Below, piece after piece: positions 2 through 19,352 of a stretch of DNA of 32,000 bases; position 1 is the stretch's first letter; every line of letters begins with the position of its first letter. The position numbers and the translations under genes were made by a program. The notes beneath the pieces are model-generated. The model ran no database searches and was not told the origin of the DNA. It saw only the letters and a list, made by a program, of their open reading frames with translations. The stretch covers positions 329,789 through 361,788 of the forward strand of contig JAMWCX010000001.1 of NCBI GenBank assembly GCA_023818895.1, given 5' to 3'. The stretch comes from Candidatus Omnitrophota bacterium (GTDB lineage Bacteria; Omnitrophota; Gorgyraeia; 2-01-FULL-45-10).

Positions 2-3000
2 ACCGGGTATCGACGTGCCCCGCCATGCAGCCATGGCAAATCCCAGATCATCCAGGATCATCGTATCCGGGTCTGACCAGGCCGGATCGCGCGGATTTTG
101 TCTCATGGCGTCATCAACGACTATAACTCTTTTTATCAATCGGCCTTTATCCGCCAGAAGAACCTGTTTCGCCTGCGGATTTTCTTTTCGTAACTTTTTA
201 AGGAGAAAACTCCTGTAGCTCAAGAGCCGCTTATAGAATCCTGTCTCAGGCTCCGGCATATTACGGTTTGCGTATAACTGATACATATCTTCAATGTACT
301 GGCGCACAAAATGTTCCGGGTCGATACGGTCGGCCGACTGGTATCTGTTATGCGCCTTTACCCGATGGAAGTCCGACAGGGCGTCATAGGTAAGCACCCT
401 TTCATAATTATCGGCAAGAAAAGCCGCCAACCTCCCATTATCACTTATTATGCGTTCTATCGTATTCAGGTATTCTACTACTATACTGTCAACTATGGTC
501 GGCTCATAAAATTCATGATTCCGCTCGGCATAATAACCGTGTTTATTCTTTAAGACCTTTATAACTGGAACATCATCGCGAAGCTTTTCTAAAAGCTCTA
601 TTCGATCGATATCGTACCCTTCAAAAGTACGCGAACCTGCCTCCCAATCAGCTGAGGCATACGTAGTATCTTCTTCGTCCTTTTCCTCGCCGAAAGACGC
701 GAACCCATATCGGCTTTCCGCCCTCCCGCTTTCATTCGCCAGCATAACCACAAAATTAATCGCGAAATGAAACGCCGCCATTATCGCAAGGTATACTTGC
801 TGATCCATCATCGCAATCGGCAGAAGAGCCAATGAGGATACGGTAAGCAAAACCGGAGCGCGCATCCATTTTGATTCCTTGTCATAATGCAAAGCGATAA
901 ATACCAACCCCCAAATAAGGTATGACAATGTTATGCTGCCAAATAGGCCGGCCGTGAAATTAGGCAAAAGCCATCTGAAAATTGGTTCTTCAACAAGCGG
1001 CGCAATGAAAAGAGCCCTGATACGTTTACGCAAACCATGACTCATATTCGGTGTCAACAATTTAAGAAGTCTTGTTACCCCTGGACTGAAGGGCTTCGAA
1101 AATACGCTGTTTTTAGTCAGCAGACTCTTTAGCCAATCTAACCCCGCAACTATCTGCCCCCTTTCCAACATGTTTGTCAGAACGGCGGCATTATTTACAA
1201 TATGAAGCACATATCTGGCGGTATTCGACCGGTCGCCGTACACAGCCGAAAAAGAATTTATCCGTTCTCGATTGCTCAAGGCATTTCTTATGTCATTGTT
1301 GACTTTTACCGGTCCCTTTAAATATGCGGCAAGAGCAAATTTCAGTCGCTCAGAACGATCAGTTATCTTAGAGCTATAATTTTCAAATAACTTCAGCAGG
1401 TATGCACTGCCTGCCCCTACATTCTTCTCCGGCACAAAACGCTCGTCGAATTCCGCGACCCACTTCTTGTAATCCGCCGGATCATATCTAGAGCTATCAA
1501 GACCGTATTTCTTAACAAAATTCCTAGCGGCAAGCCGAAGGGCTTTCTCACCGTCACGGCCCGGCTTCCATTCGCGCTTTCCCTCCTTTATATTGTTGTA
1601 CCTGACTACCCTGACGGCGTGTTCCAGCTGGGCCTGCCAGCGCCTGTCTACGCTAAGCCCCATCTCTACAGCAGCAGGCCCGAGAAGCTGCATGAGTCCA
1701 ACTGCGCCGACTGAAGATACAGCGAAGGGATTGCCATTCGATTCGCGCCGTATGTGGGCAAGCACAAGAGCTATATCCGATATTTCAGGAGCGAAAGTCT
1801 TTTCATATCTTTCTTTTTGGGGTTCGACCTGTTCTCTTTCGGTCTTTTCAGGCAGGATTTCTGCCGGCCGATTTTGATCCGTAGCATTCTCTTTCTGCTC
1901 TATACCTACAGGTTCTATTTCATCATCAGGCGGGTTTATTATCCTCAGCGACATCTTCGGCAAAGTAAATGACATCATTACCAACCCTATTAGCGCCATA
2001 ATGTTAAGAATTTTATTGCAAATCTCTCCTTTAATCCCCATGGGAGGGAGCGCGCTTATCGCTTCGTATTTATCCATATCCCCCCGCTCCACTCCTCTCT
2101 GCACCTGTCTGCGATAATCATCGGAGAATAATAATTTTAATAGGATAACTCCGTCTAAACCTATCGGCAGTATCGCAAATGCGAGGTTCATGTATGCGTA
2201 AATACCCAAGAAAAAACCTACAGGGCTGTCAATATGCAGAAGCAATCTCGCCACAACTTCTGATATTATAAATAAGGCAAAATGCACCGGATAAGGTGCC
2301 GCTATTATCTTTGCGAGTTTTCTTGACACATCAGGAGTGCCCTTCAAAAATCCGAATTGAACACTCACAAGCGTCTGAGGATCATACCCGAGCTCTACGC
2401 CATCGGCACCGTTACTAATGGCCACGATCGCATGGGCTGTCTCATGCACCATAAAGGTAAGCAACAGGACGAGCGCCATCAGTCCCAAAAAAGGCAATAA
2501 GTCCACCTCCAGATCGCTTAAATAAACGAAAAATACCGGCAGGGCCGCGACTATGTTTAAGCGCGCGCGAAAATGTTTTGCGGATTTTCCCGGTGGGCCT
2601 GAGCGGGAAACTTTTTTTGTGACCACGAAGGGAAGTCCCTGCGATGCTTCAAAGGAGTCTCCAAGATATTTTACAACTTTGCTTCTCATTTCGCTGTCTA
2701 ATATCCCTATACCCGGTAATATGCAGCGGCCTCCTGGCTTAAGAACTCGCCTTATCTCTCTAAAGGTCCTTGACAGCTGTGTGTCAGTAAAATATTCGAA
2801 GACTCCCAACTCATAGACAACATCGAAGTAATCATCGGGATAAGGCAAGTGCTCGGTTATGTCCCCTTTTACCAGTTTTACGTCCTTGGCCTCCGTATTC
2901 TCCAAGGCAATATCTATGCCGAATGCTTCCACCTTTTTGCCGTAGACGGCCTTTAACCCTTCGATCGTGTTTCCGCGTTCACCGCAGCCGAGATCAAGGA

Positions 3001-6000
3001 CCCTAACCGTGCCAGAGACGCTGTTGATAGCATCGTTTATGGCACTCTTTATCGAAGAGGGCAGCTCGTCATATGCCCTGTTTGACATTCCTGGCTCCGA
3101 CGAATGAAAGAGCCTTGCAACAAACTCCTTTTCCGCCGCTGACACCACAAAGCGCTGCAGAAGATCCTTCATTTCTTTTGGTGTAATATTATTAGATATT
3201 ATGGAGGTTATAAGCCACCAGGACTTTGTCTTGATCAATTTGTCCCTCAGGCTGTCCGGCACGACAGGACCCTTATCCCCCACGCTCTTCGATCTGAGAT
3301 ATTCAAATATCTTGATATGCTCGTCAAATGGGATCGGGTCTTTATCAGAATCGCGCCATACCTTCAGATAAAAGCCGAGATTCCATATCTCGAGCTCCTC
3401 CACCGTCATTCCTACCTTTCGGAGTATCCTGTCTATCTCCTCAGCATCTGGAACTCCGGTCTTCTCATGGTCATACGCTTCAGGCACATCATACACCAAT
3501 CCAGACTCTTGCGCCCTGCGAAGCGCGCCAGCCTGCTGTAAATCTGATATTTTGTTAGTCGAGGCGACATTTACAACAAAATCGAATGCGAACAATCCGA
3601 AGATGGCATAAAGAACCGCTTTTACCGATGATGATACAGCCGGATAGCTTAACAGCAGATTTGACACCCCTGGCATACCGGAAGCGATGAACAGCAATAT
3701 AGAAAAGGCCGCTATTCCCATTCCGAGCGGCGCTGCCAAAAGAACACGAAGCGGATTTTTGAAGTTTTCGCCTTCAGGTGCGCGATACGCGCCGCCTACG
3801 ATCCTGCCGCCCTCACGGATGATCTCGATCCTGCCCCTGAAGCCGTCCGCCAGCGCGTGTAAGAACTCGTGGGGATAAACCACTAGCATCGACAAGAAGT
3901 TGCCGATAAAGGGAATGCGTGATAAGTGGCGGGCGGTAAAGCTGTAAGCCTTTCCATGCATTGGAGGCTGCATATTATCCAGAAGATATCCGCTGAGCCA
4001 TTTTACGTCATCGATTCTGACAGGGTTTATGTTTTGGATGAATGGATCCCTGCTCAGGCCCAAGGCCGGCGCGTGATTCCCCCCGATTAACACGAGAAAT
4101 TTCTTAGCAGGGTATTTTCGCGTCAGCGCTTCAAGACGTTTCGCCGCAACCTCGTTACGCGCCTTAAGCATCTCCTCCCTGACAAGAACGGCCTTCTGGT
4201 GGAACCTCTTCAGTTCTTCCCTTGAGGCCGATATCCTGATCGCAGCTTTTAAGAGGATCTGCCGTACCTCATCCTCCGGAATACCATAAAGTATTTTCGC
4301 GGTCTGCACAAAAGGATTGAACATTAGCGGAAACGGCGGATCTCGGTCTGTCTTTGCGCCCCTGGCCAATAAGCCCTTAACGACGAGGCTCAGGTGGTCG
4401 TGCAATTGTGGAAAAAGGGATGCGGCCAAGATATCTTCCTTGGAAAGGCCTGTTCTTCTTATCAGTATCTCGAGAACCTCGACATCGCCCTGAAGAGGGA
4501 TTATATCTTCAACCGGTATATTGAGATCCCTGCTCAACTTATCGGCTATCGCCACATCTGCTAGCGAGATCGGCATGCCCGTCTTTCTTCGGTCGGGCAA
4601 AGACTCCGCAACAATTACCCAATCCTGCGGATTCCGAATTATTGACCTGCTTATAGCAAGGATCTCGTCGGCTGCCCTCGGCGAACCGTGCGTGCCCGCA
4701 ACAACCTCCATGGGGGTTCCATACAATGTTATGGAATAACGCTCCGCGCCCCCGCTGGTTATAGTCGACGGCATAGGGCCGAATCTAAGTTCAACCTGGC
4801 TTTTGTGTTCGGCAAGAGATTTGTAAGTTCTTTCAACGCGTATATACGGAACGACAAGGAACGCGGTTATTGCCGCCACCGCAAGAAGCACAGCCGATAT
4901 GATTATAGCCCTGAACGGCGCATGTCTTTCTTTCGCAGCCTGTTTTCCCTGCACAGGAGGCGCGCGCGGCCCTGCCGGCTGAATAACAAAACGCGCTTCA
5001 ATCTCGCCAAGGTACCGCTCGGGGAGGCCCAGTTCTTTTCGTATATCATCAAGAGTCAGACGGTCGCCCTTATTGGCAACAACAACGCGGACCTTCTTGG
5101 CGGCTGCCCGTCTCGCCTCTCTTTTTTCAAGCTTAGGTAGCCCTTCAAGCGCTCTGGCTATGTCCGGAATGGTGGTATCCCTATTAAGCGCCAGACGACC
5201 TGCCGACGACCGTCCCATTCCCTGACCTAGATGAAGCGCCATCGCAAGCCTTACACCGTCCTCCTCGCTTAAACCATACCTTTTAACGAGCGCATCCAGG
5301 TCAATATCTTCCAGAGGAGTTCCCGTGGCAAGCTGCCGACGAGCCTCACGGATTGCGGCGTCAAGACCTGTCGAAGATACCTTAGCATTTGACCTTCCTC
5401 TTGCCTTAACGACCTCGATCGGATCCAGGCCGCCCCTAAAGGATTCGTCGTTAACAAGCGCCTCTACCAGGCCGGCCATCCCTGGAATCTCCAGATCAGC
5501 CGCCTTCACATATTCATCTCTCTTCATGGTATTAAGTTTTTCTCTAAACCACTCTGTCATTCCTCGCTCGCGTATCAGAGGAATGTATTCGGGCATCCTA
5601 AGTTCGTTACGCAGCCTTTCCCATTGCGCTTTGTTTACACGGCGCGCAAGCTCTTTTACACGGTCCTCGTGAGCCTTAAGCTCATCCTCCATCTGCGGTA
5701 TATACTCATCCGACCCTTTTCTCGCATCGTTATGCCTCATCGCTAAATAAATTATCCGCTTCTCGATGACGGATAGTCTCCTCTTTGTATTTAAGAGGTG
5801 GTCGGCTATGGCCAATCTTACATCCTCGTCGCTTGCGTCCGGCCACACTTCTATCCACGAGCCATCCTCCGAAAAAATCACCCTGCATAAGCCGGGAATG
5901 TTCATAGGGGTTTCAATATAGCGGACAATCTTAGAATACTCCGCGTCAACCAGCTGTTGCAACCTCGTCAGGTCCATTAGCGCCGGCTTGTCCGACACCT

Positions 6001-9000
6001 GCTCAGCCGGAATAGATACAGCCTTTTTGCCGGAAATCAAGCGACGGGCCATATTGATTATCTTTGCCCAGAAGATGGATATCAAGATAAGAGGAAAAAC
6101 GTATTTCAGGGCAAACAAACGCAGGCCTTTGGGAGATAAAAAATATGGCTTTAAATCTTCGACGCGCTGCGCCTTTACATGCTCAAGCCTAAAGTCAGCT
6201 AAATTGGAAGAGCATCTTACCGCGCCCTCGTATGAGGCTATATTTTTCGCATTTACCGTCCTCACCTCATAGCCCAGACCTTCCCATATCTTACAGGCTC
6301 GGGCGTCCATTAAGTCGTAACTGTATACAGGCACCAAAGCGACCCGATCCCGCAGGATAACAGCATTGTTATAGGTAATAACCGCCCCTTTGCCAGCCAC
6401 AGTCAGGCCGTACCATGGAAGCGCTGTGACCTTCATTCCTATATCGGTAAGCTCTCTTACCGTCTCGTCCAGTTTCCCAAGAACGCTTGTAAGGCCGCTT
6501 AAATCAAAGCTATAGGCATCAAATCTATCGCAGAAATCTACCAGCGCCTTCTTGAGATCTTTATCGCTAATCTCGGTTTCAACTAAGTATCTTATGTTCG
6601 TCAGCGCAACTTCTATATTGGTAATATGGTTTTTAATGCTTTGTTGCTGTGCCACCGAAATAGAAAATGGCTCTCCTTGTCTTAATATCTCTACCGTTAT
6701 ATCTTTTTCTGTCATAAATTTATCGACATAATCCCGCAACTCATCATATGCAGAAATGTCCAATCTTGCCAAATCAACAGCGGCCTGTTCCAGAAAAGCC
6801 TCCAATCCCATCTTCGGCGAACCTACAAGCGCCACACCTTCCTCCAGAAGCGTGACTTGGGTATCTATATGCGATTTCTCTATGTATGACGGTAAAAGAT
6901 GCAGCTCAGCCTCAAAGAAATCAGTGGCGAAGCGTTTTATGGTCTCCAGAACATCCTCTTTCGTATCAGCTGTTGCCAGCTCCAGGTTTAACCATACGGT
7001 ATGCTCGCCTATGAACAGGTGTTTTTTACCGCCTATCTCAGATACCAACAGGTCGCCTCCGACTAAATCGAATGGCAATTCCACCAGCTTCGCCCCTATG
7101 GCAGCCGCCACTTCCGAAGCAACGGTATAACCGTCGCTTCGGCCATCTTTACCCAACGACTTCATGTGCTTTGAGACGAGCACAAGGCCGGCATCATCCG
7201 GCCCTTTAGCGTAAATAAAAGGATCTCTAATCCATATGGGTACGGCGGTGTATGTCAAATCAGGATACGAAGCGAATATGCTCTTGTGTATAGATATCGC
7301 CTTCACCTTAATGGGCTTCTCCTTCTTGACCTTTTTTATAAGATTCTTGAGATCATCCGAAAAAGACGAATCAAGGACCACGAGGACCTCTGTGTCATCA
7401 GGAAGAGATCTGAATAGCTCCATATAATAATCATCGTAAAGGCTGTCATATCCGATTATGATACCGTTTCCTTCCTGTTTATAGGAAGGCGGCAGGTTTA
7501 TACGCTGATAATTAACCGTATCATTTGGTAATGAAGACTCGCTAATGACGGCATCCGATTTTAATGCCACGTTGGTAATAACAGGCTGTGCTAGCGGCGC
7601 GGCGCTGAGAATGGGTGCTGTTCTGAGCAATGCCCCGATAATAGCCATGCTTATCAAATAGCCGGCGCCTCGCCTACCTCTCCGATTCTTGCTGTCCACG
7701 GGTAACTCTCCATGCCGCTGCGCTTTACTGGTAGACATATCAGATCCAGCCATGCCTGCCATCAAATTAGGGGGCGCGCTTATAGCTGCGGCCGCGAGGC
7801 CTAGACGATTTAAATTACTGGCTATAGCTAGCGCGGATAGGCCGCTCGACTGCGCCAGCTTTATGAATTCGGCGTAAGGATTGCCTGAGAGCAGTTTGAA
7901 ATATGGGCTCTCATATCCGGCGCCGTTTCTGAAATTCGGCAGGATGGATATGTAAGAGATATTGTTTTTCTTGAAGAGCTCGCAGAGGTTCTCGGTGTGA
8001 AAGCCTCCGGTGACCACAACAGCAACTTGAGGCCTGACGGCCTGACGATGCGAGGGCCCTTTACTAAATCTGATATTCTTTATGAAAGCTTCGTCGCGCT
8101 TCATGGAATATTCATAAAACTTAGCCATCTCTTCTCGATTACGGTCAAGACCCTCTATCTCGATACTGAGCCTTGCTTCTATGCCATGTTTCGGCGCTTC
8201 CCGTCTTATGAAGTCTATGTAATTTTTGGCGTTGAATGACTCCTCGTTTGCCTGGTAATACGCGTAGTCCGGGCGAGTCAATGTGGCGTTGAAAAGGTTC
8301 TTCATGAGGGCAAGATTCTTGGAAAGAAGGACAAGATCGCGCTGCGTATCATTTTCGCACAGCGACTCTTTCAGCCGCGACTCGAGATCTTCTATCTCCG
8401 CCATCGCTTTAAGATTGTCGACCGCCTCATAGCGCGATATATAGTTGATATAAGCGTAAAACTGCGAGAAATCCTTCGTCTGTATAGAGAGTGCCGCTGC
8501 CTTGGTCATCAGATATGAGTAAAAATCTTTCTGGGATATCCTATTGGCCCGTAAGGCAACTGTCTTGGCTACCAGCTCCTCTACTTCGCTTCGCGAAAGC
8601 GCATTCTGAAGAACATCGATCAACTGATCGCGCTCAATATTAGCCTTTTTGAAATCAATACCGGCCTCCTGCTCAAGCGACTGCTTCAAAAGACCCAGAT
8701 TTTTAAACGCCGCGATATCGACCGATCTTCTCTCTGCGAGCGTAATGAGATGCGAAATATAGTCTCTAAACGGAAGGCTGCCTGACTTGAATTGCGAATA
8801 GGCAACATCCAGATCGAGAAGCTCCTTAGAATATATCTTGAGTTTTAGGGCAGCGAGAACGCTGCTTAATGCCCTGAGGCCCGCGTTCACGCTCTCTTTT
8901 TCACGTAAAGAATTTTTGTAAACCTTAAGGTTATCGAGATAAAGCCGCGGCTCTTCTATCCCCCACAGCGTGATTCTGCCTGGATTATTAATGGCAAAAT

Positions 9001-9490
9001 ACTCAGCTCCGTTTAAAAGACCCTCTTTTACAAAATTATCCGCGGCCTTATGCCTTATCTCCGCATCTTGAATATTTGTGAACAATGAAATATCATAATC
9101 CGCCTCGCCCCCCTCAAGGTTAACTATGCTGGCGCCGTAAGCGGCGCTTAAATAGTCAATAATCTCAGCGATTTTTATCTGTGCGTTATAGTTACAATGA
9201 GCATCCTGAATGTGAATAATAGTCGGGGGCTGTGAGGCAAGAGCCGGTAGATGAGGCGCTGACCATGAACTTTTTATCGTCCCGAGATCGTGCGGTAGGT
9301 AAAATGATTTTATGTCAAATTCTTCCGACTCGGACAGCGGTGAAATAAAATCAGATTTTTCTGCCCATACAAGATCTGCGGGAAGGCATGTGCAGAGAAA
9401 TGCGATAAGGGTAATAAATGCTATTATCCTTATTGACAGCGTGAACCGGAATATTATATCCCTGCGGATATTTGAGCTCGCGTCTTTCAT
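2..9490 (-). CDS. Giant multidomain membrane protein. N-terminus complete, C-terminus beyond the window edge (at least 3163 codons in window). Absent from the supplied ORF track.
   Basis: ATG at 9488-9490 (minus) is preceded by an in-frame TAA 18 nt upstream. Manual translation of the reverse complement, in the frame whose codons have lowest coordinate = 2 mod 3, met no stop down to position 2. Every recognisable motif listed below lies in that same frame. Any in-frame stop would have produced a complete minus-strand ORF in the track, and none is listed. Confidence 0.9.
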   Translation of the reverse strand, partial: MKDASSNIRRDIIFRFTLSIRIIAFITLIAFLCTCLPADLVWAEKSDFISPLSESEEFDIKSFYLPHDLGTIKSSWSAPHLPALASQPPTIIHIQDAHCNYNAQIKIAEIIDYLSAAYGASIVNLEGGEADYDISLFTNIQDAEIRHKAADNFVKEGLLNGAEYFAINNPGRITLWGIEEPRLYLDNLKVYKNSLREKESVNAGLRALSSVLAALKLKIYSKELLDLDVAYSQFKSGSLPFRDYISHLITLAERRSVDIAAFKNLGLLKQSLEQEAGIDFKKANIERDQLIDVLQNALSRSEVEELVAKTVALRANRISQKDFYSYLMTKAAALSIQTKDFSQFYAYINYISRYEAVDNLKAMAEIEDLESRLKESLCENDTQRDLVLLSKNLALMKNLFNATLTRPDYAYYQANEESFNAKNYIDFIRREAPKHGIEARLSIEIEGLDRNREEMAKFYEYSMKRDEAFIKNIRFSKGPSHRQAVRPQVAVVVTGGFHTENLCELFKKNNISYISILPNFRNGAGYESPYFKLLSGNPYAEFIKLAQSSGLSALAIASNLNRLGLAAAAISAPPNLMAGMAGSDMSTSKAQRHGELPVDSKNRRGRRGAGYLISMAIIGALLRTAPILSAAPLAQPVITNVALKSDAVISESSLPNDTVNYQRINLPPSYKQEGNGIIIGYDSLYDDYYMELFRSLPDDTEVLVVLDSSFSDDLKNLIKKVKKEKPIKVKAISIHKSIFASYPDLTYTAVPIWIRDPFIYAKGPDDAGLVLVSKHMKSLGKDGRSDGYTVASEVAAAIGAKLVELPFDLVGGDLLVSEIGGKKHLFIGEHTVWLNLELATADTKEDVLETIKRFATDFFEAELHLLPSYIEKSHIDTQVTLLEEGVALVGSPKMGLEAFLEQAAVDLARLDISAYDELRDYVDKFMTEKDITVEILRQGEPFSISVAQQQSIKNHITNIEVALTNIRYLVETEISDKDLKKALVDFCDRFDAYSFDLSGLTSVLGKLDETVRELTDIGMKVTALPWYGLTVAGKGAVITYNNAVILRDRVALVPVYSYDLMDARACKIWEGLGYEVRTVNAKNIASYEGAVRCSSNLADFRLEHVKAQRVEDLKPYFLSPKGLRLFALKYVFPLILISIFWAKIINMARRLISGKKAVSIPAEQVSDKPALMDLTRLQQLVDAEYSKIVRYIETPMNIPGLCRVIFSEDGSWIEVWPDASDEDVRLAIADHLLNTKRRLSVIEKRIIYLAMRHNDARKGSDEYIPQMEDELKAHEDRVKELARRVNKAQWERLRNELRMPEYIPLIRERGMTEWFREKLNTMKRDEYVKAADLEIPGMAGLVEALVNDESFRGGLDPIEVVKARGRSNAKVSSTGLDAAIREARRQLATGTPLEDIDLDALVKRYGLSEEDGVRLAMALHLGQGMGRSSAGRLALNRDTTIPDIARALEGLPKLEKREARRAAAKKVRVVVANKGDRLTLDDIRKELGLPERYLGEIEARFVIQPAGPRAPPVQGKQAAKERHAPFRAIIISAVLLAVAAITAFLVVPYIRVERTYKSLAEHKSQVELRFGPMPSTITSGGAERYSITLYGTPMEVVAGTHGSPRAADEILAISRSIIRNPQDWVIVAESLPDRRKTGMPISLADVAIADKLSRDLNIPVEDIIPLQGDVEVLEILIRRTGLSKEDILAASLFPQLHDHLSLVVKGLLARGAKTDRDPPFPLMFNPFVQTAKILYGIPEDEVRQILLKAAIRISASREELKRFHQKAVLVREEMLKARNEVAAKRLEALTRKYPAKKFLVLIGGNHAPALGLSRDPFIQNINPVRIDDVKWLSGYLLDNMQPPMHGKAYSFTARHLSRIPFIGNFLSMLVVYPHEFLHALADGFRGRIEIIREGGRIVGGAYRAPEGENFKNPLRVLLAAPLGMGIAAFSILLFIASGMPGVSNLLLSYPAVSSSVKAVLYAIFGLFAFDFVVNVASTNKISDLQQAGALRRAQESGLVYDVPEAYDHEKTGVPDAEEIDRILRKVGMTVEELEIWNLGFYLKVWRDSDKDPIPFDEHIKIFEYLRSKSVGDKGPVVPDSLRDKLIKTKSWWLITSIISNNITPKEMKDLLQRFVVSAAEKEFVARLFHSSEPGMSNRAYDELPSSIKSAINDAINSVSGTVRVLDLGCGERGNTIEGLKAVYGKKVEAFGIDIALENTEAKDVKLVKGDITEHLPYPDDYFDVVYELGVFEYFTDTQLSRTFREIRRVLKPGGRCILPGIGILDSEMRSKVVKYLGDSFEASQGLPFVVTKKVSRSGPPGKSAKHFRARLNIVAALPVFFVYLSDLEVDLLPFLGLMALVLLLTFMVHETAHAIVAISNGADGVELGYDPQTLVSVQFGFLKGTPDVSRKLAKIIAAPYPVHFALFIISEVVARLLLHIDSPVGFFLGIYAYMNLAFAILPIGLDGVILLKLLFSDDYRRQVQRGVERGDMDKYEAISALPPMGIKGEICNKILNIMALIGLVMMSFTLPKMSLRIINPPDDEIEPVGIEQKENATDQNRPAEILPEKTEREQVEPQKERYEKTFAPEISDIALVLAHIRRESNGNPFAVSSVGAVGLMQLLGPAAVEMGLSVDRRWQAQLEHAVRVVRYNNIKEGKREWKPGRDGEKALRLAARNFVKKYGLDSSRYDPADYKKWVAEFDERFVPEKNVGAGSAYLLKLFENYSSKITDRSERLKFALAAYLKGPVKVNNDIRNALSNRERINSFSAVYGDRSNTARYVLHIVNNAAVLTNMLERGQIVAGLDWLKSLLTKNSVFSKPFSPGVTRLLKLLTPNMSHGLRKRIRALFIAPLVEEPIFRWLLPNFTAGLFGSITLSYLIWGLVFIALHYDKESKWMRAPVLLTVSSLALLPIAMMDQQVYLAIMAAFHFAINFVVMLANESGRAESRYGFASFGEEKDEEDTTYASADWEAGSRTFEGYDIDRIELLEKLRDDVPVIKVLKNKHGYYAERNHEFYEPTIVDSIVVEYLNTIERIISDNGRLAAFLADNYERVLTYDALSDFHRVKAHNRYQSADRIDPEHFVRQYIEDMYQLYANRNMPEPETGFYKRLLSYRSFLLKKLRKENPQAKQVLLADKGRLIKRVIVVDDAMRQNPRDPAWSDPDTMILDDLGFAMAAWRGTSIPG
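740..1010 (-). other. Giant protein aa ~2828-2915: CPBP/Abi (CAAX protease-like) intramembrane glutamic endopeptidase domain
   Basis: Motif 1 APLVEEPIFRWLL (EEPIFR 974-991), motif 2 FIALH (FxxxH), and motif 3 AAFHFAINF (HFAIN 755-769). All are embedded in hydrophobic segments. Confidence 0.75.
1185..1800 (-). other. Giant protein aa ~2565-2770: SLT (family 1) lytic transglycosylase domain
   Basis: IALVLAHIRRESNGNPFAVSSVGAVGLMQLL, with the catalytic-type Glu codon at 1742-1744 and GLMQ ending at 1688. Downstream is KFALAAYLKGPVKV (1301-1330), which matches the AYNxGxxxV motif. Confidence 0.85.
2090..2530 (-). other. Giant protein aa ~2320-2465: M50 (site-2 protease)-like intramembrane metalloprotease module
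   Basis: HExxH inside a hydrophobic helix: LMALVLLLTFMVHETAHAIVA (HETAH 2432-2446). A second family motif follows downstream: YMNLAFAILPIGLDGVILL (LPIGLDG 2150-2170). Compare NxxPxxxLDG in SpoIVFB/RseP-type enzymes. Confidence 0.7.
2690..3080 (-). other. Giant protein aa ~2140-2265: class I SAM-dependent methyltransferase domain (Methyltransf_11-like)
   Basis: Motif I VRVLDLGCGERG (2972-3001), post-I AFGIDIA, motif II YFDVVYELGVFEYF, and motif III REIRRVLKPGGRCIL (LKPGG 2729-2743). Confidence 0.85.
3560..3900 (-). other. Giant protein aa ~1865-1975: HExxH membrane module (M50B-like putative metalloprotease)
   Basis: VVYPHEFLHALADGFRGRIEIIREGG, with HEFLH at 3857-3871. It is followed by hydrophobic spans LRVLLAAPLGMGIAAFSILLFIASG and VKAVLYAIFGLFAFDFVVNV. 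The HExxHAL-x4-G-x-I pattern resembles Peptidase_M50B. Confidence 0.5.
4050..4770 (-). other. Giant protein aa ~1575-1810: Tiki/TraB/GumN-like module 2
   Basis: EVVAGTHGSPRAADEI (4679-4705), DWVIVAESLPD, and KKFLVLIGGNHAPALG (4058-4090). Compare TraB LVGTAHFS ... VMVELC ... VVGMGHVPGI. Confidence 0.5.
6200..7471 (-). other. Giant protein aa ~674-1096: guanidino-group-modifying (pentein) domain, agmatine deiminase / Porphyromonas-type peptidyl-arginine deiminase-like
   Basis: Colinear series matching the agmatine deiminase / PAD_porph motif order: PIWIRDPF (W-I-R-D 7223-7234), DLVGGDLLVSEIGGKKHLFIGE (V-G-G-D 7052-7063), SHIDTQVTLLEEG (H-I-D 6863-6871), ITYNNAVILRDRVALVPVY, and ASYEGAVRCSSN (Cys codon 6212-6214, at the position of the catalytic Cys in GGGxHCxTQ / GxRCMS). 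A helical insertion of about 130 aa follows the HID motif. Confidence 0.6.
7976..9238 (-). other. Giant protein aa ~85-505: Tiki/TraB/GumN/ChaN-superfamily-like module 1 with a long helical insertion
   Basis: TIIHIQDAHCNYNAQ (9191-9220), IVNLEGGE, and VAVVVTGGFHTENL (7985-8017). These resemble the paired GxxH and acidic-strand motifs of TraB/GumN proteins (hhGTxH ... VELD ... VGxGHhxG). Motif-level only. Confidence 0.4.
9362..9490 (-). other. Giant protein aa 1-43: N-terminal signal peptide or signal anchor
   Basis: Basic N-region (MKDASSNIRRD), then hydrophobic IIFRFTLSIRIIAFITLIAFLCTCL, then PADLVWA/EK, which resembles an AxA-type cleavage site. Confidence 0.6.
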
Positions 9491-9552
9491 CTCAAATATT
9501 ATCTTACTTTATATAAATCTAACACAATGCATAAAAAAATTTAAGTAACTAG

Positions 9553-10172: not shown

Positions 10173-10227
10173 AACCCCCGACCTGAGGTTTACAAAACCC
10201 CTGCTCTGCCTGCTGAGCTACGCTAGC
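10152..10227 (-). tRNA. tRNA-Thr (anticodon TGT), CCA encoded
   Basis: Reverse complement is GCTAGCGTAGCTCAGCAGGCAGAGCAGGGGTTTTGTAAACCTCAGGTCGGGGGTTCGATTCCCTCCGCTAGCTCCA. Clean cloverleaf with anticodon loop TTTGTAA. Confidence 0.95.
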
Positions 10228-11078
10228 GTCTTTAATGCGTCCGGCAATTTATGTAAAAGATCAGTGGCAAGAAGGCTCAAAATCCCCTTCTCTTTCAGCG
10301 CAAGGTCACCGGCAAGACCGTGGAAATATGCTCCCAATACCGCTGCGACGAAAGGTTCTGTCCCCTGCCCTATAAAACTCGCGATCATTCCCGTCAATAT
10401 ATCGCCGGTCCCGCCTGTCGCCATTCCTTCATTGCCGGTCTCGTTAATATAGCAATCGCCCGCGGGACTCGCCACCACAGTGCCGTGTCCTTTTAAAACC
10501 AGGACGGTATTATACTCACTTGCGAACTTTAACGCAACATCTTTTCTGTTCTGCTGTATCTCTGATATGTCTTTGCCGCAAAGCCGCGACATCTCGCCAG
10601 GGTGCGGCGTCAATACAATAGGGGCCTTTGCTTGCTTAAGGATATCCGCATGGCCTGCCAGACAGTTTATACCGTCGGCGTCTATTACCATGGGCTTGTT
10701 TATCTTTCCCGTCAATATCCTGACCAGTTGCTGGGTCTCCTTGTTCTGCGATATTCCTGGCCCCAGCGCCACTGCATCGCATTTTTCGCAAAAGGCAAGT
10801 ATCTCCTTCTCCGCAAGAAGACTGATTGACATGTCCTTTGTCTCGAAAAAAGGCCTGACCATTACCTCGGTCAGCTTGCCGGCCATTATCGGGTAGAGAG
10901 TCCTGCCTATGGCCAGAGTGACGAGCCCGCTTCCGGAAAGCGCCGCCGCCTGGCTTGTAAGATAAGCCGCGCCGGTGTAGCCGGCTGATCCGGCAACGAC
11001 AAATAAATGCCCAAAATCTCCCTTATGGGCAGTGCGGTCTTTTTTCGGAAACTTGCTTATGGCTTCCTGTATAGTCAC
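10218..11078 (-). CDS. nnrD: ADP-dependent NAD(P)H-hydrate dehydratase (YjeF C-terminal / carbohydrate-kinase-like)
   Basis: KGDFGHLFVVAGSAGYTGAAYL, TPHPGEMSRL, and ATGGTGDILTG motifs. 286 aa. The stop overlaps the 5' end of tRNA-Thr by 10 nt. Confidence 0.85.
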   Translation of the reverse strand: MTIQEAISKFPKKDRTAHKGDFGHLFVVAGSAGYTGAAYLTSQAAALSGSGLVTLAIGRTLYPIMAGKLTEVMVRPFFETKDMSISLLAEKEILAFCEKCDAVALGPGISQNKETQQLVRILTGKINKPMVIDADGINCLAGHADILKQAKAPIVLTPHPGEMSRLCGKDISEIQQNRKDVALKFASEYNTVLVLKGHGTVVASPAGDCYINETGNEGMATGGTGDILTGMIASFIGQGTEPFVAAVLGAYFHGLAGDLALKEKGILSLLATDLLHKLPDALKTLA

Positions 11079-11464
11079 GCTCTTCCCTTTCTAAGCAATA
11101 TGACATTGGCTATCGCATATTCTTTGGAATGTGACATACTAACTATGACATCGCGTATCTTCTTCTTTTTTTTGACCTTAAGGGCATCGTTATGGAATTG
11201 GATGGTGGGCCTTCCCTCTCTATCATTCAAAACCTCTATATCCGTCCACTGGAGTGGGTGTTTTTGAGGCTCGCCGAATGCCTTGATAACAGCCTCCTTT
11301 GCCGCAAAACGGGCCGCGAAATGCTGATAGGAAAATCTTCGCGATTTCGAATAGTGTATTTCGCGAGTCGTGAATATTCGCGTAAGAAAACCCTCCCCCC
11401 ACCGCTCTATCGCGTCGCGCACCCTGTCGATCTCCACTATGTCCACGCCCGTACCTGATATCAT
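11075..11464 (-). CDS. acpS: Holo-[acyl-carrier-protein] synthase
   Basis: GTGVDIVEIDRV, FAARFAAKEAVIKAFG, and REGRPTI. 129 aa. 4-nt overlaps with both neighbours. Confidence 0.9.
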   Translation of the reverse strand: MISGTGVDIVEIDRVRDAIERWGEGFLTRIFTTREIHYSKSRRFSYQHFAARFAAKEAVIKAFGEPQKHPLQWTDIEVLNDREGRPTIQFHNDALKVKKKKKIRDVIVSMSHSKEYAIANVILLRKGRA

Positions 11465-12171
11465 CCTATAAGCCCCTTCATCTGCCGAACCGCCTCTTTT
11501 ATGCCCACAAAAACCGCGCGTGATATTATAGAATGGCCTATATTAAGCTCGTGAAGACCTTCTATATGGGCAATATCCACAACGTTGATGTAATTAAGCC
11601 CATGGCCGGCATTTACCTCCATCCCTTTTGATCGGGCATATAAACATGCCTCCTTTAGGATCCTAAGTTCTCTTTTTTTTGCGCTCATTGAAGGCGCGTT
11701 AGCATACTCACCTGTATGAAGCTCTATTATGCGCGCGCCCGTCTTCAGAGACGCATCAATCTGCTTTTTAGATGGATTAATGAACAGACTGACTGCGATG
11801 CCACATGACTCCAGTTTGCAAACCACAGAACTTATTTTTCGAACATTCGAGACAACATCAAGACCGCCTTCAGTCGTGATTTCCATACGGCGCTCTGGCA
11901 CAAGCGTGGCCTGGTCCGGCCTTATATTACACGCGAAATCTACCACATCTTTTGCAATAGACATCTCCAGATTCAGTCTCTCAACAGCTCTTCTTAATGC
12001 CGCCACGTCGGCATCTTTTATATGGCGTCTGTCTTCTCTGAGATGGCAGACAATCGAATCAGCGCCTCCCGCGATACATTCTTTAGCAGCGTCTATAGGG
12101 TTTGGCTCGTATGTCTTTCTGGCCTCCCTCAACGTGGCAACATGGTCTATATTTACGCCTAACTTTAACAT
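11461..12171 (-). CDS. pdxJ: Pyridoxine 5'-phosphate synthase
   Basis: MLKLGVNIDHVATLREAR and HLREDRRHI motifs. I prefer ATG 12171, which gives the canonical PdxJ N-terminus. The track's longer version starts at a TTG at 12198. Confidence 0.9.
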   Translation of the reverse strand: MLKLGVNIDHVATLREARKTYEPNPIDAAKECIAGGADSIVCHLREDRRHIKDADVAALRRAVERLNLEMSIAKDVVDFACNIRPDQATLVPERRMEITTEGGLDVVSNVRKISSVVCKLESCGIAVSLFINPSKKQIDASLKTGARIIELHTGEYANAPSMSAKKRELRILKEACLYARSKGMEVNAGHGLNYINVVDIAHIEGLHELNIGHSIISRAVFVGIKEAVRQMKGLIG

Positions 12172-12178
12172 TGGTATC

Positions 12179-12622
12179 TCAGGGACCCGATTTTTCAACG
12201 GGGACAGTTACCTCAACCAGCGTCTCTTCAGTATAGACACCCGGCGCGATAGGGCTTAAAGGCACTGATTTGGTAAATGGCCTGTACGAACCGCGGACAT
12301 CTATCGGCATTGTGTGAGCAAACCTTATCTTGGAGAGAAGGTCCTTAGCGCCCACTACTATGCAGTATTCCGGAACAACGATCGCCTTCCTTGAGTCTAT
12401 CGTATAGCCATATCGTGGGGTTCCGACAAAAACGGGTTTTATCAATAACTTCTTGGCAACAATACCACCCGTTGGGAGGACCTTGTTCAGAAACTGCCTT
12501 TCCTCCTCGCTGCCTTTATTGAGCTCGCTGACTATGTAGAACCATAAGGCAAGCGCGAGTAAAAGTGCCGTCAACTTAAGACCCACGTTAACGGTAAAAA
12601 GATTTTTAAGGAATTTAAGCAT
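12179..12622 (-). CDS. YbbR-like domain protein, probable CdaA regulator (CdaR-type), N-terminal membrane anchor
   Basis: 147 aa. One TM helix (GLKLTALLLALALWFYIV) followed by a beta-rich domain. Sits immediately downstream of cdaA, as in cdaA-cdaR operons. The call rests on position and architecture. Confidence 0.55.
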   Translation of the reverse strand: MLKFLKNLFTVNVGLKLTALLLALALWFYIVSELNKGSEEERQFLNKVLPTGGIVAKKLLIKPVFVGTPRYGYTIDSRKAIVVPEYCIVVGAKDLLSKIRFAHTMPIDVRGSYRPFTKSVPLSPIAPGVYTEETLVEVTVPVEKSGP

Positions 12623-12628
12623 GTCTTA

Positions 12629-13420
12629 CTATCTGCCCCTTTTAGCAACCTTTAGAAATCCGGTCGGTAACTTAAATGGCTTATCTTCGGGTTTATAAAA
12701 GAGGTTTTTCAACATCTTTAGGACACCTTCTTCGTCTAAGCCTAGGTTTAGCTTGCCGCCGCTCGCTATGGAGATAGCGCCGGTCTCCTCGCTTACAATG
12801 AGGCATACAGCGTCCGTCTCTTCTGTTATCCCTACAGCCGCCCTATGGCGCATACCGAGTATCTTAGGTATCCCCCTCTCTTCCTGAGGAAGAGGCAGGA
12901 CGCAACCTGCCGCCACAAGCCTTCCCCGCTGTATTATCACGGCGCCGTCATGTAATGGCGATTGCGGCATAAAAATGGAAGTTATAAGGTAATTCGTTAC
13001 CTTGGCGTCTATCTGCGTGCCGCTTTCGATATAGCTCTTTAAGCCTACCTCCCGTTCGAGCACTATAAGAGCGCCTATCTTTCGCCGCGATAGGTTGCCC
13101 GCGGCCCCCGCAATCTCTTCCAGCACTTCACCGGATTCCTGATGAAGCCCAAGCTGGCCGAGTTGGGCAAGGCCCTTTCGTAGCTCCGGTTGGAATATTA
13201 CGATAAGCGCTATGACGGAGATAGGAAAAAGGCGGGCAAGAGACCAGCTTATTGCCTCAAGACCCAACTGTTGCGCTATAAGAAATATGACGCCAATTAT
13301 AACTATTCCTTTCAAAAGCTGTTCTGAGCGCGTCCCCTTCACAAAAAGAAGCACCATATATATAACATACCAAAGAATCAGGACCTCGACGACTATCTTC
13401 CAATAATAAAGCATTGTCAT
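12629..13420 (-). CDS. cdaA: Diadenylate cyclase (c-di-AMP synthase), membrane-anchored CdaA type
   Basis: Three N-terminal TM helices, then a DAC domain with PLHDGAVII and GMRHRAAVGITE motifs. Confidence 0.9.
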   Translation of the reverse strand: MTMLYYWKIVVEVLILWYVIYMVLLFVKGTRSEQLLKGIVIIGVIFLIAQQLGLEAISWSLARLFPISVIALIVIFQPELRKGLAQLGQLGLHQESGEVLEEIAGAAGNLSRRKIGALIVLEREVGLKSYIESGTQIDAKVTNYLITSIFMPQSPLHDGAVIIQRGRLVAAGCVLPLPQEERGIPKILGMRHRAAVGITEETDAVCLIVSEETGAISIASGGKLNLGLDEEGVLKMLKNLFYKPEDKPFKLPTGFLKVAKRGR

Positions 13421-13421
13421 C

Positions 13422-14282
13422 TTAATTTGCTTTTATTTTTATGACGGCATCCGCCATAAGCGATGCCTGACGAATTTCTTTGACATCGTGGACCCTTAAG
13501 ATACTCGCGCCCTTCAGCACCGCTATCACACACGTAGCTACCGTGCCGATTAGCCTGTTGGCTGGCTCTGGCACGTTAAGCACTTTACCTATAAAAGATT
13601 TTCGCGAGGTCCCTACGCATATCGGACGCCCGAGAATAGCAAGCTCTTCCAGTCTGTTAAGTATCTCAAGGTTATGCTCCAGAGATTTTCCAAAACCTAT
13701 GCCTGGATCAACTATGATAGAGTCTTCGGAAACGCCCGCCTGAATGGCGATCTTGACAGACATAGAAAGATCTCGCGCCACCTCCTTTACCACATCACCG
13801 TATTGCGGATCAGTCTGCATGTTCTTCGGTGTGCCCTTCATGTGCATAAGTATAAGAGCGGCGCCGTATCTCTTGGCAACAGAGGCCATCCTTTCATCAT
13901 ACCGTAAACCGGAGACATCGTTCACTATCCTGGCGCCGGCCTTAAGAGCCTCTTCGGCAACCACTGGCTTGCGCGTATCTACTGAAAGCACCGCATCCGT
14001 CTTCTTCGATAACTCGCGTATTATTGGGATAACGCGCGAGCATTCCTCATCAACGCTTACTTCTTCTGCTCCGGGCCGTGTCGACTCACCACCTATGTCC
14101 ACTATATCAGCGCCGTCTGATATCATATCGAGGGCGTGCCTTACGGCCTTCTCTTTGTCCAAAAATCGGCCGCCGTCTGAAAATGAATCGGGCGTCACAT
14201 TGAGGATGCCCATTATGTAGGTGCGCCTACTCAGTTCAAGCTTTATGCCTCTTACTGTCACATCAGGCCGACTTAGTCGCAT
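13422..14282 (-). CDS. folP: Dihydropteroate synthase
   Basis: IMGILNVTPDSFSDGG, DIGGESTRPG, and DPGIGFGK motifs. Confidence 0.9.
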   Translation of the reverse strand: MRLSRPDVTVRGIKLELSRRTYIMGILNVTPDSFSDGGRFLDKEKAVRHALDMISDGADIVDIGGESTRPGAEEVSVDEECSRVIPIIRELSKKTDAVLSVDTRKPVVAEEALKAGARIVNDVSGLRYDERMASVAKRYGAALILMHMKGTPKNMQTDPQYGDVVKEVARDLSMSVKIAIQAGVSEDSIIVDPGIGFGKSLEHNLEILNRLEELAILGRPICVGTSRKSFIGKVLNVPEPANRLIGTVATCVIAVLKGASILRVHDVKEIRQASLMADAVIKIKAN

Positions 14283-16140
14283 CGGTCTTATTAAAACCCA
14301 GAAGGGCCTTTATCTCCTCCACCTCCATAACCTCTTTTTCAAGTAGCTTATCAGCCAGCAGCTTAAGCTTGTCTTTATGTTTCAGAATTTCGTCTTTCGC
14401 TCTTTGATAGCACTGCTCTATTATGCCACGGACCTCCTGGTCGATCATGAGGGCGGTTTGGTCGCTGTAATTACGCTCTTCTATTATGTCGCGGCCGAGA
14501 AATATCTGCTCTTCGCGATGGCCGAATGTAAGGTGACCTAGCTTTTCGCTCATGCCGTAGCGCGTCACCATCTTACGCGCAAGCTGAGTTGCCACCTCAA
14601 GATCGTTCTGCGCGCCGGTCGAGATCTCATTAAACGTAATCTCCTCGCTGGCCCTACCGCCCAGCAGGCCTGTTATCCTGCCCAACAGCTCTTCTTTTGT
14701 AACTATATATCTATCCTCCAGCGGAAGTTGTATTGTATATCCGAGCGCCATGCCCCGCGGCAGAATCGAAACTTTGTGCAATGGGTCGGCCCCAGGTATA
14801 ACAAGCGCAAGAAGCGCATGGCCTGTCTCATGGTAGGCAACTATCATCTTCTCTTGTTTTGATATTACCCTAGATTTCCTCTCAGGGCCAGCCATCACCC
14901 TTTCTATGGACTCCTGCAACTCCTCCATCGTAACGGACTCTTTATTACGCCTTGCGGCAAGCAGGGCTGCCTCGTTGACGAGGTTGGCAAGATCTGCTCC
15001 CGAAAATCCGGGAGTCTGGCGGGCAAGCGAATTGAGGTCAACGGCCTTATCAAGCTTTATATTACGAGTATGCACCTTTAATATCGCCTCGCGGCCAACA
15101 ATATCCGGCCTGTCGATAACCACCTGTCTGTCAAATCTACCCGGCCGCAATAACGCTGGATCGAGCACATCGGGCCTGTTTGTGGCGGCTATCAATATTA
15201 CCCCTTCCTGAGTATTAAAACCATCCATCTCCACAAGAAGAGCATTAAGAGTCTGCTCGCGCTCATCATGGCCTCCGCCGATGCCAGCAAACCGCTGACG
15301 CCCAACAGCGTCTATTTCATCTATGAATATGATCGCGCCGCGTCCGCTGGCCTTAGCTGACCTCTTGGCCTGTTCGAAAAGGTCTCGCACCCTGGAGGCA
15401 CCTACACCCACAAACATCTCGACAAAGTCAGATCCGGATATAGAAAGGAACGGGACGTTCGCCTCTCCTGCCACGGCCTTCGCAAGAAGCGTCTTGCCAG
15501 TACCGGGTGGACCCATCAGAAGAACGCCCTTAGGAATCTTGCCGCCAAGCCGCTGAAACTTTCTTGGATCTTTAAGAAATTCTATAACCTCCTTAAGCTC
15601 TTCCTTGGCTTCGTCTACACCGGCCACATCCTCAAAGGTTACCTTCAGCCGAGATTCCGAAGCAAGCGTGGCGCGGGATTTGCCGAAAGACCAGATCCTA
15701 CCCCCTCCTGCCGCAGCGCTGCCCCGGTAAACGAAAAACCACAAAAATAATATAAAAAGTATCATCGGACCAAGAGAATAGAAGATGTTCATCCATAGCG
15801 TTTTGGGCGGCTTGACATCAAAGTCCTTCACATTTTCGCGCAGGCTCCTGATAAGGTCCTGATCTCCATCGGGTATATTGACTATGAAGCGACCACCGTC
15901 CGCGAAAACACCCTTTATAACATTCTCTATCTTAACGGCCGATCTTATCTTTTGCGTGCTGGGGTTATCTTTTAGGATCTCGTAAAATTTGGAATAGGTA
16001 ATCTCCTGGACAGGCTTCTCGGTAACGCTCTGGCTCCAGGCGTTTATCAGGTATAAAGCGCCGATGATTATCAGAAGCCATATGACAAAATTACCTCTAT
16101 TTCTCACTGGCTTCAGACTTTTATTTTCCTTCTGCTCCAT
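14263..16140 (-). CDS. ftsH: ATP-dependent zinc metalloprotease FtsH
   Basis: Two TM helices. Walker [14 protein letters not shown], Walker [33 protein letters not shown], and zinc site HETGHAL. Confidence 0.95.
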
Positions 16141-16187
16141 TTTCTATACTCCGCTATATATATGGCGTATTCTATCAAAATATGGAC

Positions 16188-16196
16188 ATTATATCA
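16188..16196 (-). promoter_or_regulatory. Extended -10 element TGATATAAT upstream of ftsH
   Basis: Located in the 59-nt tilS-ftsH intergenic gap, 47 nt upstream of ATG 16140. The same 9-mer occurs upstream of the giant gene and of tRNA-Met. No good -35 element. Confidence 0.4.
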
Positions 16197-16199
16197 AGG

Positions 16200-17198: not shown

Positions 17199-17200
17199 AG

Positions 17201-18466: not shown

Positions 18467-18869
18467 GATATACATCCTTCTTAAGCTTCTCGACAACCAT
18501 CATGTCCGCTTTCGCGAAATCGTAAGCGGAAAGCTCGGTCGGCAGCACCCACCTTATCTCATCATGATCTGTGGGGACAAAATCACCGCATATATGCTGT
18601 GCCTTGTAGACAAATAGCTCAAGCGGGACACACAGGTATGTAAATCTGCTGGAACACAGAAATTCACCCACCTCTGCTTCTATGCCGAATTCCTCTTTTA
18701 ACTCGCGCTTCAGGCACTGTTCTGGTGTTTCGCCAGGACGGATCTTCCCCCCAGGAAACTCCCATTTGCCGCCGAGTCTATCCGTCTTTTTACGCCTGGC
18801 GATAAGCAGGCGACCGTCTTTTTCAATGACCGCGGCCGTGACTTTTAGCAAGTTGGATATTATATCCAT
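18459..18869 (-). CDS. NUDIX hydrolase, MutT-like (8-oxo-dGTP/CTP pyrophosphohydrolase type)
   Basis: Nudix box GGKWEFPGGKIRPGETPEQCLKRELKEEFGI. 136 aa. Confidence 0.85.
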   Translation of the reverse strand: MDIISNLLKVTAAVIEKDGRLLIARRKKTDRLGGKWEFPGGKIRPGETPEQCLKRELKEEFGIEAEVGEFLCSSRFTYLCVPLELFVYKAQHICGDFVPTDHDEIRWVLPTELSAYDFAKADMMVVEKLKKDVYHV

Positions 18870-18870
18870 A

Positions 18871-19146: not shown

Positions 19147-19212
19147 CTGACGAACACTGGTCCGCCATGAACCCCAACAAAAATTTCGATAGAAAATTTT
19201 GTAAGCGGTTCA

Positions 19213-19289: not shown

Positions 19290-19352
19290 ACACTGTATGA
19301 CATCACCAACTAGATTTGACCGCTAGGTAACGCCATATTTATTGGAGTGGAT

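Follow-up and report, generated by a model that had tools for sequence, protein, structure and literature searches.

A methyltransferase placed between two HExxH membrane modules in a giant mosaic protein of the Omnitrophota

Results

A methyltransferase within a multi-enzyme membrane protein

In a 32,000-nucleotide stretch of DNA from a Candidatus Omnitrophota bacterium (assembly GCA_023818895.1, contig JAMWCX010000001.1, positions 329,789 to 361,788; hereafter the window), one giant open reading frame (ORF) encodes a protein in which a putative S-adenosylmethionine (SAM)-dependent methyltransferase is flanked by two hydrophobic modules, each with an HExxH motif (HEx1 and HEx2), and is followed by a lytic transglycosylase (SLT) domain and a CPBP/Rce1-like domain. 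We consider it likely, with some room for doubt, that this region is an internal stretch of a giant multi-pass, multi-enzyme mosaic membrane protein, and that the methyltransferase owes its placement to cassette shuffling. An earlier reading of the same DNA (the original prediction) had taken the arrangement as a hint of coupled, CAAX-like cleavage and methylation of a substrate. Since no other protein among 1.84e9 representatives was found by HMMER to combine HEx1, the methyltransferase and HEx2, and since relatives shuffle these modules, that coupling is left unsupported.

The frame is open on the minus strand over window positions 2-9508, with its first ATG at 9490, from which all amino acid (aa) positions are counted here. 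It encodes more than 3163 aa and exits the left window edge without a stop. The giant protein holds exactly two HExxH motifs, HEFLH (aa 1874-1878, window 3857-3871) and HETAH (aa 2349-2353, window 2432-2446), where ~0.06 would be expected from composition. Together with VLDLGCGERG (aa 2164-2173, window 2972-3001), LKPGG (aa 2250-2254, window 2729-2743) and LPIGLDG (aa 2441-2447, window 2150-2170), these motifs stand exactly where the original prediction had placed them, all five in one minus-strand ORF. No internal repeats were found in the giant protein by self-BLAST. The parts that carry the argument are as follows.

2..9490, minus strand: giant ORF, multi-pass mosaic membrane protein of the Omnitrophota long-protein type; open frame, 3' end cut by the window edge
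3491..3940, minus strand: HEx1, unclassified HExxHxxxD membrane module (aa 1851-2000), from homologous modules in relatives
2591..3448, minus strand: methyltransferase cassette (aa ~2015-2300, ~290 aa), a ~140-aa N-terminal extension (the "linker") plus a SAM-binding Rossmann core
2717..2998, minus strand: class I SAM methyltransferase core (aa 2165-2258), from Pfam Methyltransf_11 and motifs
1946..2566, minus strand: HEx2 (aa 2309-2515), probable divergent M50/site-2-protease-like intramembrane module, four core helices plus a fifth
1958..2023, minus strand: fifth hydrophobic helix after the M50-like core (aa 2490-2511), K/R before it and acidic residues after it
1301..1771, minus strand: SLT lytic transglycosylase domain (aa ~2574-2730), from Pfam SLT PF01464, with E2583 in ESNGNP...GLMQL
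749..1021, minus strand: CPBP/Rce1-like intramembrane protease domain (aa 2824-2914), from Pfam PF02517 and motifs

We propose that the chain is built as a row of cassettes in the order HEx1, methyltransferase, HEx2 with its extra helix, SLT and CPBP, in which the hydrophobic modules would anchor the chain and set the sidedness of what lies between them. The methyltransferase would be on the cytoplasmic side, with access to SAM, the M50-like core would bring the chain back to the cytoplasmic face, and the fifth helix would export SLT toward the peptidoglycan. The methyltransferase would have come to lie between the two HExxH modules by lineage-specific shuffling of cassettes, not as part of a dedicated protease-methyltransferase machine, and each enzymatic cassette would most likely act on its own substrate.

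Module order in relatives

The stretch at aa 1851-2530 was scanned exhaustively with HMMER against the 1.84e9 representative proteins. Apart from the window protein, HEx1 and HEx2 were found together only in P0123, and HEx1 followed by a methyltransferase, of a different kind, only in P0158 (P and L numbers are our own handles for relatives). The order in L002/P0123 is HEx1, HEx1, mid1, mid2, HEx2, SLT and CPBP, where mid1 and mid2 are two further regions of the long proteins; mid2 abuts HEx2, with no methyltransferase. In P0001 (3569 aa) the order is a PAD-like region, HEx2, SLT, mid1, mid2 and HEx1. What lies downstream of HEx1 copies likewise varies, i.e., DUF7790, M48, HATPase_c, a methyltransferase or unknown sequence. 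The adjacencies that recur are mid1-mid2 and HEx2-SLT, each in 3/3 proteins, and mid2-HEx1 in 2/3. To judge from these alignments, relatives hold the same cassettes in other orders and other contexts, and cassette shuffling in Omnitrophota long proteins is an already described phenomenon. A word-indexed search with the whole three-module stretch returned two generic methyltransferases only, and one with HEx2 alone returned nothing, the k-mer prefilter of this search being one that misses divergent membrane modules.

The methyltransferase cassette

The methyltransferase core matched the full-length model (1-95) of Methyltransf_11 (PF08241) at aa 2165-2258 with an E-value of 2.6e-15 and 57.2 bits against a cut-off of 21.2, and it also matched the Methyltransf_25, _31 and _23 models of Pfam. 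All SAM motifs are present, i.e., motif I (VLDLGCGERG), post-I (GID, with D2193), II (KGD...FDVVY) and III (LKPGG), and they align with their equivalents in the methyltransferases 3l8d and 1ve3 of the PDB. By these motifs the domain is a genuine class I SAM enzyme; the textbook methyltransferase of the original prediction thus stands, and no loss of SAM-binding residues was seen on alignment. Among NCBIfam models the nearest are of the DVU_1556, ArsM, UbiE and BioC types, yet the domain falls below every equivalog cut-off. With these enzymes it shares a Rossmann core with motifs I, post-I, II and III; unlike them, the cassette has a conserved, family-specific N-terminal extension of ~140 aa. 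Judging from the nearest clades, its substrate is probably a small molecule or lipid.

Both linker and core were matched in 19 of the best 147 representative HMMER hits, including stand-alone proteins of ~280 aa, and the linker is therefore part of the evolutionary unit of the methyltransferase. The named proteins that carry linker plus core are from Omnitrophota. The cassette recurs in P0124 (twice), P0125, P0127, P0128, P0129, P0133, P0135 and P0139, so that, by similarity, it is an independent unit that recurs both in other long proteins and alone. Its closest relatives stand without an adjacent HExxH module, P0133 having HExxH motifs ~440 aa upstream. The base composition profile showed no anomaly at the cassette that would point to its having been inserted recently. 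A metagenome scan with the cassette recovered only generic methyltransferase cores at no more than 41% identity, none of which spanned the N-terminal extension.

The SLT and CPBP domains

The SLT domain that the original prediction had named was confirmed by Pfam (PF01464, 49-58 bits against 21.3, E 9e-16 as a fragment) and by its predicted catalytic glutamate, E2583, within RRESNGNP...GLMQL. It is 38-50% identical to the SLT domains that come after HEx2 in P0001 and L002. Like family 1 membrane-bound lytic transglycosylases (MltC/EmtA), it has the catalytic ES...GLMQ motif and matches Pfam SLT; unlike them, it would be anchored by a preceding M50-like helix bundle in a giant protein and not by a lipobox or signal anchor. 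The recurrent unit of a site-2 protease (S2P)-like core, an export helix and a lytic transglycosylase suggests tethering, and perhaps regulation, of a cell-wall-cutting enzyme.

The CPBP domain scored 29.6 bits against PF02517 as a fragment and 22.1 in a whole-protein scan, with a cut-off of 22.4. It carries the expected motifs EEPIFR (aa 2834-2839, EExxxR), FIALH (aa 2864-2868, FxxxH) and HFAIN (aa 2908-2912, HxxxN), and is 68% identical to the CPBP domain of L002. The original prediction was right that such a domain is present, but not that the protein ends in it, as the frame runs ~245 aa further.

The two HExxH modules

In HEx2, the candidate catalytic residues are H2349, E2350, H2353, N2435 and D2446. 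Homologous modules were found in P0002, P0067, P0001 and P0073 (phmmer E 3e-34 to 6e-8) and in L002 (56% identity). In a five-sequence alignment (A1) the H, E, H, N and D are invariant, and the HExxH and DG motifs both lie in hydrophobic segments. Alone, HEx2 scores 12-15 bits against M50/M50B; for the Pfam M50 model (PF02163) it reaches 12.4 bits against a threshold of 27.2. Of its homologues, that in P0067 passes this threshold (32.4), whereas those in P0002 (20.3), P0001 (18.6) and L002 (12.3) fail it, and the PF02163 matches of these modules are confined to the HExxH helix. The P0067 module also comes near the threshold of DUF3267 (PF11667), at 26.5 versus 27.1 bits, which is where the relatives of HEx2 touch that family.

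The best profile match among 177,635 PDB sequences was to MjS2P (3b4r), with colinear HExxH, N and DG at an E-value of 0.37; an RseP-type chain ranked third. The AlphaFold2 (AF2) model of HEx2 has a mean predicted local distance difference test (pLDDT) score of 65 (75-88 in the core) and shows the HExxH helix, a beta-hairpin and then helices with the Asp at a helix start. With this model, Foldseek ranked 3b4r 1-2 (E 0.23, probability 0.90, template modelling (TM) score 0.39-0.41) and SpoIVFB 7. Like MjS2P, RseP and SpoIVFB, HEx2 would have HExxH at the end of a transmembrane helix, a beta-hairpin and two helices, the second of which bears N...P..LDG, with an inferred active site near the cytoplasmic face. 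Unlike S2P/M50 enzymes, it gives scores that are not significant (E 0.2-0.4, TM score ~0.4) and lie below the Pfam M50 threshold, has no PDZ or CBS domains, and is embedded in a giant chain, directly before a domain that would be exported. Taking together these concordant lines, each of them individually weak, HEx2 is probably a divergent M50/S2P-like module. The M50 assignment of the original prediction is thus plausible on indirect evidence, from the invariant HExxH/N/DG signature and the top, though non-significant, rank of 3b4r, and not from its 12-15 bits against M50/M50B.

HEx1 is a different matter. It comprises HEFLH with D1882, strong hydrophobic helices at aa 1917-1935 and 1958-1976 (the latter holding D1970) and SD at 1982-1983. 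Its homologues are in P0001, P0002, P0123 (two copies), P0141 (two), P0158 (two) and P0246, so that it is often present twice in a giant protein; a genome scan with HEx1 found two loci only. In an alignment of nine sequences (A3, with one P0123 copy) the residues H, E, H, D, G, Y, A and P are invariant, and the family signature reads RIPxIG...HExxHxxxD..RG...AAPxG...[two helices]...SD. No Pfam model, neither M50B (PF13398) nor any other, matched HEx1 even at E<=10, and M50B was matched by 1/9 homologous modules, weakly (E 0.021); the M50B label that the original prediction gave to the HEFLH module is hence not supported. PDB sequence, profile and Foldseek searches with HEx1 gave noise only, e.g., ferritin helices. 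HEx1 and HEx2 resemble the putative membrane zincins of M50B and DUF3267 in being small HExxH membrane modules; unlike these families, HEx1 is without a significant match and has its own signature. An SD-type motif past a late helix is conserved in M50B proteins too and may be a further point of likeness to HEx1. From its conserved residues, HEx1 is probably a metal-dependent family, as yet unclassified.

In the AF2 models, HEx1 and HEx2 have a similar order of secondary structure, i.e., the HExxH helix, a beta-hairpin and two long helices. Comparing the two with hhalign gave a probability of 3.7% when 3 sequences were used and of 28% when 9 were used, the latter over the HExxH-to-AAP stretch, and homology of the two is not claimed here.

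Topology between the methyltransferase and SLT

Hydropathy analysis placed five hydrophobic segments between the methyltransferase and SLT, at aa 2311-2329, 2331-2349, 2402-2420, 2436-2454 and 2490-2508. K/R residues cluster at three sites: the 15 aa ahead of helix 1 hold 5, the 15 aa past helix 4 hold 4, and a further cluster occupies the loop that joins helix 2 to helix 3. The loops joining helix 1 to helix 2 and helix 3 to helix 4 are short, with an acidic or neutral character, and the stretch past helix 5 is acidic. Given five segments and this positive-inside charge pattern, the constraint of an odd number of crossings is plausibly satisfied locally. In S2P enzymes, HExxH and LDG lie near the cytoplasmic face. 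The pattern fits a local path with the methyltransferase inside, five crossings and SLT outside, in which the HExxH and LDG of HEx2 would likewise lie near the cytoplasmic face. A helix 25-47 aa past the catalytic Asp is present only in the three proteins in which SLT follows (the window protein, P0001 and P0123), and is absent from P0002, P0067 and P0073, where no SLT comes next.

Alternative explanations

In the model hinted at by the original prediction, the two HExxH proteases and the methyltransferase would form a CAAX-like machine that cleaves and then methylates, with CPBP as a further component; if true, this would be a remarkable bacterial fusion of intramembrane proteolysis and substrate methylation. 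We regard it as very unlikely. The modules are physically adjacent in the window protein, CPBP is in the same chain, and P0158 is another protein in which a methyltransferase follows HEx1. However, the three-module arrangement is unique among the representatives, no HExxH module adjoins the closest methyltransferase cassettes, and the co-occurrence of protease and methyltransferase is not conserved: P0001 and L002 keep HEx1, HEx2 and SLT (L002 also CPBP) with no methyltransferase between. The likeness to eukaryotic CAAX processing, in which Rce1/Ste24 is followed by ICMT/Ste14, lies in a CPBP/Rce1-like domain and a methyltransferase being part of one membrane-associated system. The analogy fails on the methyltransferase itself, which is a soluble class I Rossmann enzyme, nearest to UbiE/ArsM/BioC/DVU_1556-type clades, and not an integral-membrane methyltransferase of the ICMT type; no ICMT/PEMT family was present in the Pfam output for the giant protein. 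Here, moreover, there is no prenylation context, two other domains lie between CPBP and the methyltransferase, and relatives keep CPBP without a methyltransferase. Action on prenylated CAAX substrates is not known for CPBP proteins of bacteria.

A self-processing polyprotein, in which HEx1, HEx2 and CPBP cut neighboring transmembrane linkers in cis and free the methyltransferase or SLT, appears unlikely. It would account for three protease-type membrane modules with intact catalytic residues in one chain and for the HEx2-helix-SLT unit that is kept in 3 proteins. Known S2P substrates are oriented N-in/C-out (RseP/RseA, SREBP), and the helix after the M50-like core would have this same orientation. 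Yet S2P enzymes normally require an earlier site-1 cut, the CPBP helices after SLT would keep SLT anchored, and HEx2 also occurs without a following helix in P0002, P0067 and P0073. That giant proteins may be cut into pieces by their own peptidase domains has been a speculation (West-Roberts et al., 10.1101/2023.11.21.568195), which favors self-processing. A version in which the protein is a membrane-threaded polyprotein and, in particular, its S2P-like core cuts the type-II-oriented helix that follows, releasing or activating SLT outside and the methyltransferase inside, we judge to be unlikely. Self-processing, if true, would be a bacterial analogue of viral polyprotein maturation by way of intramembrane proteolysis. 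The view that the HExxH modules have degenerated into non-catalytic relics, whose only role is as membrane anchors and spacers that set the sidedness of the soluble cassettes, is in our estimate distinctly unlikely. Both modules are indeed too divergent for Pfam thresholds, and the extra helix where SLT follows suggests a topological role; against this, no variation is seen in H, E, H, N and D of HEx2 or in H, E, H and D of HEx1, at a pairwise identity of only 22-56%. Invariance of ligand residues at such identity is the pattern expected of active metalloproteases, and HEx1 and HEx2 are probably active zinc proteases. An artefact, whether a chimeric assembly or several genes fused through sequencing errors, seems highly improbable. 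The source is probably metagenomic and a related NCBI assembly has a break shortly before the giant gene, but the frame is uninterrupted over 9.5 kb, composition is homogeneous, and independent assemblies hold single ORFs of comparable length with these modules (L002, 5937 aa; P0001, 3569 aa).

Several observations weigh against a mosaic protein with independently acting cassettes, as we favor it, or against its topology. HEx1 is followed by a methyltransferase in 2/~10 of its copies (the window protein and P0158), which is slightly above a rough expectation of 5%, and there may be a loose association of the two. The set of homologues listed is small, and word-indexed searches mostly failed for these modules. 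The three protease-type modules conserve their catalytic residues and are probably active, and their substrates could include the giant protein itself. As for topology, helix 1 is marginal, with 14-17 hydrophobic residues and an AF2 pLDDT below 50; should it not span the membrane, the methyltransferase and SLT would be on one side. In addition, from HEx1 to HEx2 there are 0 crossings in the window protein (aa 1851-2515) versus one strong helix (3382-3400) in L002 (2870-3907), and with these helix calls fixed module orientations cannot hold in both proteins. No single hydropathy-based topology reconciled the window protein, P0001 and L002, as every parity model left at least one conflict. The original prediction that an odd number of crossings puts SLT outside therefore agrees with the five segments and the charges locally, but sits less well with the marginal helix 1 and with the inconsistent parity among homologues. 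Topology predictions for Omnitrophota giant proteins are acknowledged to be unreliable (West-Roberts et al., 10.1101/2023.11.21.568195; Nielsen and Lui, 2026, 10.64898/2026.06.07.730766). A SAM-dependent and a peptidoglycan-directed domain in one chain are sidedness anchors that could be used to benchmark such predictions.

A family of Omnitrophota long proteins

The whole-protein search scored 281 homologues, of which 120 were listed. Among the matches listed, all source-named homologues are annotated as Omnitrophota/Omnitrophica, and the relatives from this search are 1.7-5.4 thousand aa (kaa) long; over all listed relatives the range is 1.7-5.9 kaa. What they have in common is only the N-terminal ~570 aa, at 45-55% identity (120 listed of 281 scored); their downstream Pfam content is very different and includes kinases, HATPase, M48/UbiB, GNAT, TPR/HEAT, methyltransferases and others. 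This N-terminal module had no Pfam match and no PDB sequence match. Its distribution suggests an unannotated head domain by which a large family of paralogous long membrane proteins is defined, and it marks hundreds of Omnitrophota long proteins. Both this module and the HEx1 family merit a Pfam-style description. The two remaining parts of the window protein are the following.

7766..9490, minus strand: N-terminal module of ~575 aa (aa 1-575), with a signal-anchor helix at aa 18-36, from similarity to relatives
2..700, minus strand: continuation past CPBP, unannotated (aa 2931-3163 and beyond), where the ORF leaves the window

For aa 2931-3163 there was no Pfam match and no similarity among the 120 relatives listed.

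Omnitrophota long and giant proteins have been described as a tiling of multiple enzymes with many transmembrane helices (Nielsen and Lui, 2026; West-Roberts et al.), and PF08241 heads the domain list of a signal-transduction co-occurrence module in 137 of the long proteins (Nielsen and Lui, 2026, 10.64898/2026.06.07.730766). The window protein has the origin, the unrelated enzyme domains with transmembrane helices and the mosaic relatives of this class, and is a further member of it. Like the described giant proteins, it shares its phylum with its named relatives, holds unrelated enzyme domains and interspersed transmembrane helices in one chain, and contains PF08241, which is among their commonest cassettes, as well as a cell-wall-degrading domain, a type also present in them. 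The catalogued giant proteins are subject to a cut-off of at least 10 kaa; the protein here, truncated by the window, reaches more than 3.2 kaa within it. The two papers make no mention of M50-like modules, SLT, CPBP or the 570-aa N-terminal module (West-Roberts et al.; Nielsen and Lui, 2026).

L002 (CAYGRZ010000032.1, 1237-19047) is a complete giant ORF of 5937 aa in a metagenome-assembled genome that bears the label "uncultured Planctomycetia". The N-terminal module of L002 shares 55% identity with that of the window protein, for which reason the label probably reflects mis-binning or mis-classification of an Omnitrophota contig. L002 has a third HExxH membrane module, with HELGH at aa 1617. 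HEx1 and ~245 aa are internally duplicated in this protein; an assembly artefact was rejected as the cause of the duplication, the copies being 93.6% and not 100% identical at the nucleotide level over 1184 bp.

The region mid2 (aa ~1560-1850, window 4001-4900, minus strand) carries the paired motifs VAGTHGSP...LIGGNHAP, and the N-terminal module, at aa 90-115 and 495-510, the paired motifs IHIQDAHCNY...VTGGFHTENL. We take both pairs to resemble the GTxH/GxxH motifs of the TraB/PrgY/Tiki superfamily. The two regions had no Pfam match and, by self-BLAST, no similarity to each other. Upstream of mid2, at ~6206-7450 on the minus strand (aa ~680-1095), a weak match to PAD_porph, of the agmatine/peptidyl-arginine deiminase fold, was found (E 3.9e-4); a GAVRCSSN motif lies close to the end of the match. 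Among relatives this PAD_porph-like region is common only to P0001.

Genomic setting

The genes flanking the giant gene are ordinary chromosomal ones. Directly upstream of it and on the same strand, at 10218-20191 (minus strand), are housekeeping genes, among them those for NAD(P)HX dehydratase (Nnr), AcpS, PdxJ, CdaA, FolP, FtsH, TilS, an HI0933-like flavoprotein and a NUDIX protein. The AcpS of the window is identical to that on JAMWDH010000057.1, a 6.8-kb contig of assembly GCA_023818765.1 which stops inside the Nnr gene, just short of the expected start of the giant gene. MnmA, pantothenate genes and genes for Wood-Ljungdahl corrinoid proteins also belong to the flanking set. The Wood-Ljungdahl-type cluster, at 23469-30421 (minus strand), encodes two CdhD/AcsCD-like corrinoid Fe-S subunits, pterin-binding methyltransferase-like proteins and the RACo reductive activator, and adjoins the pantothenate genes PanB and PanE.

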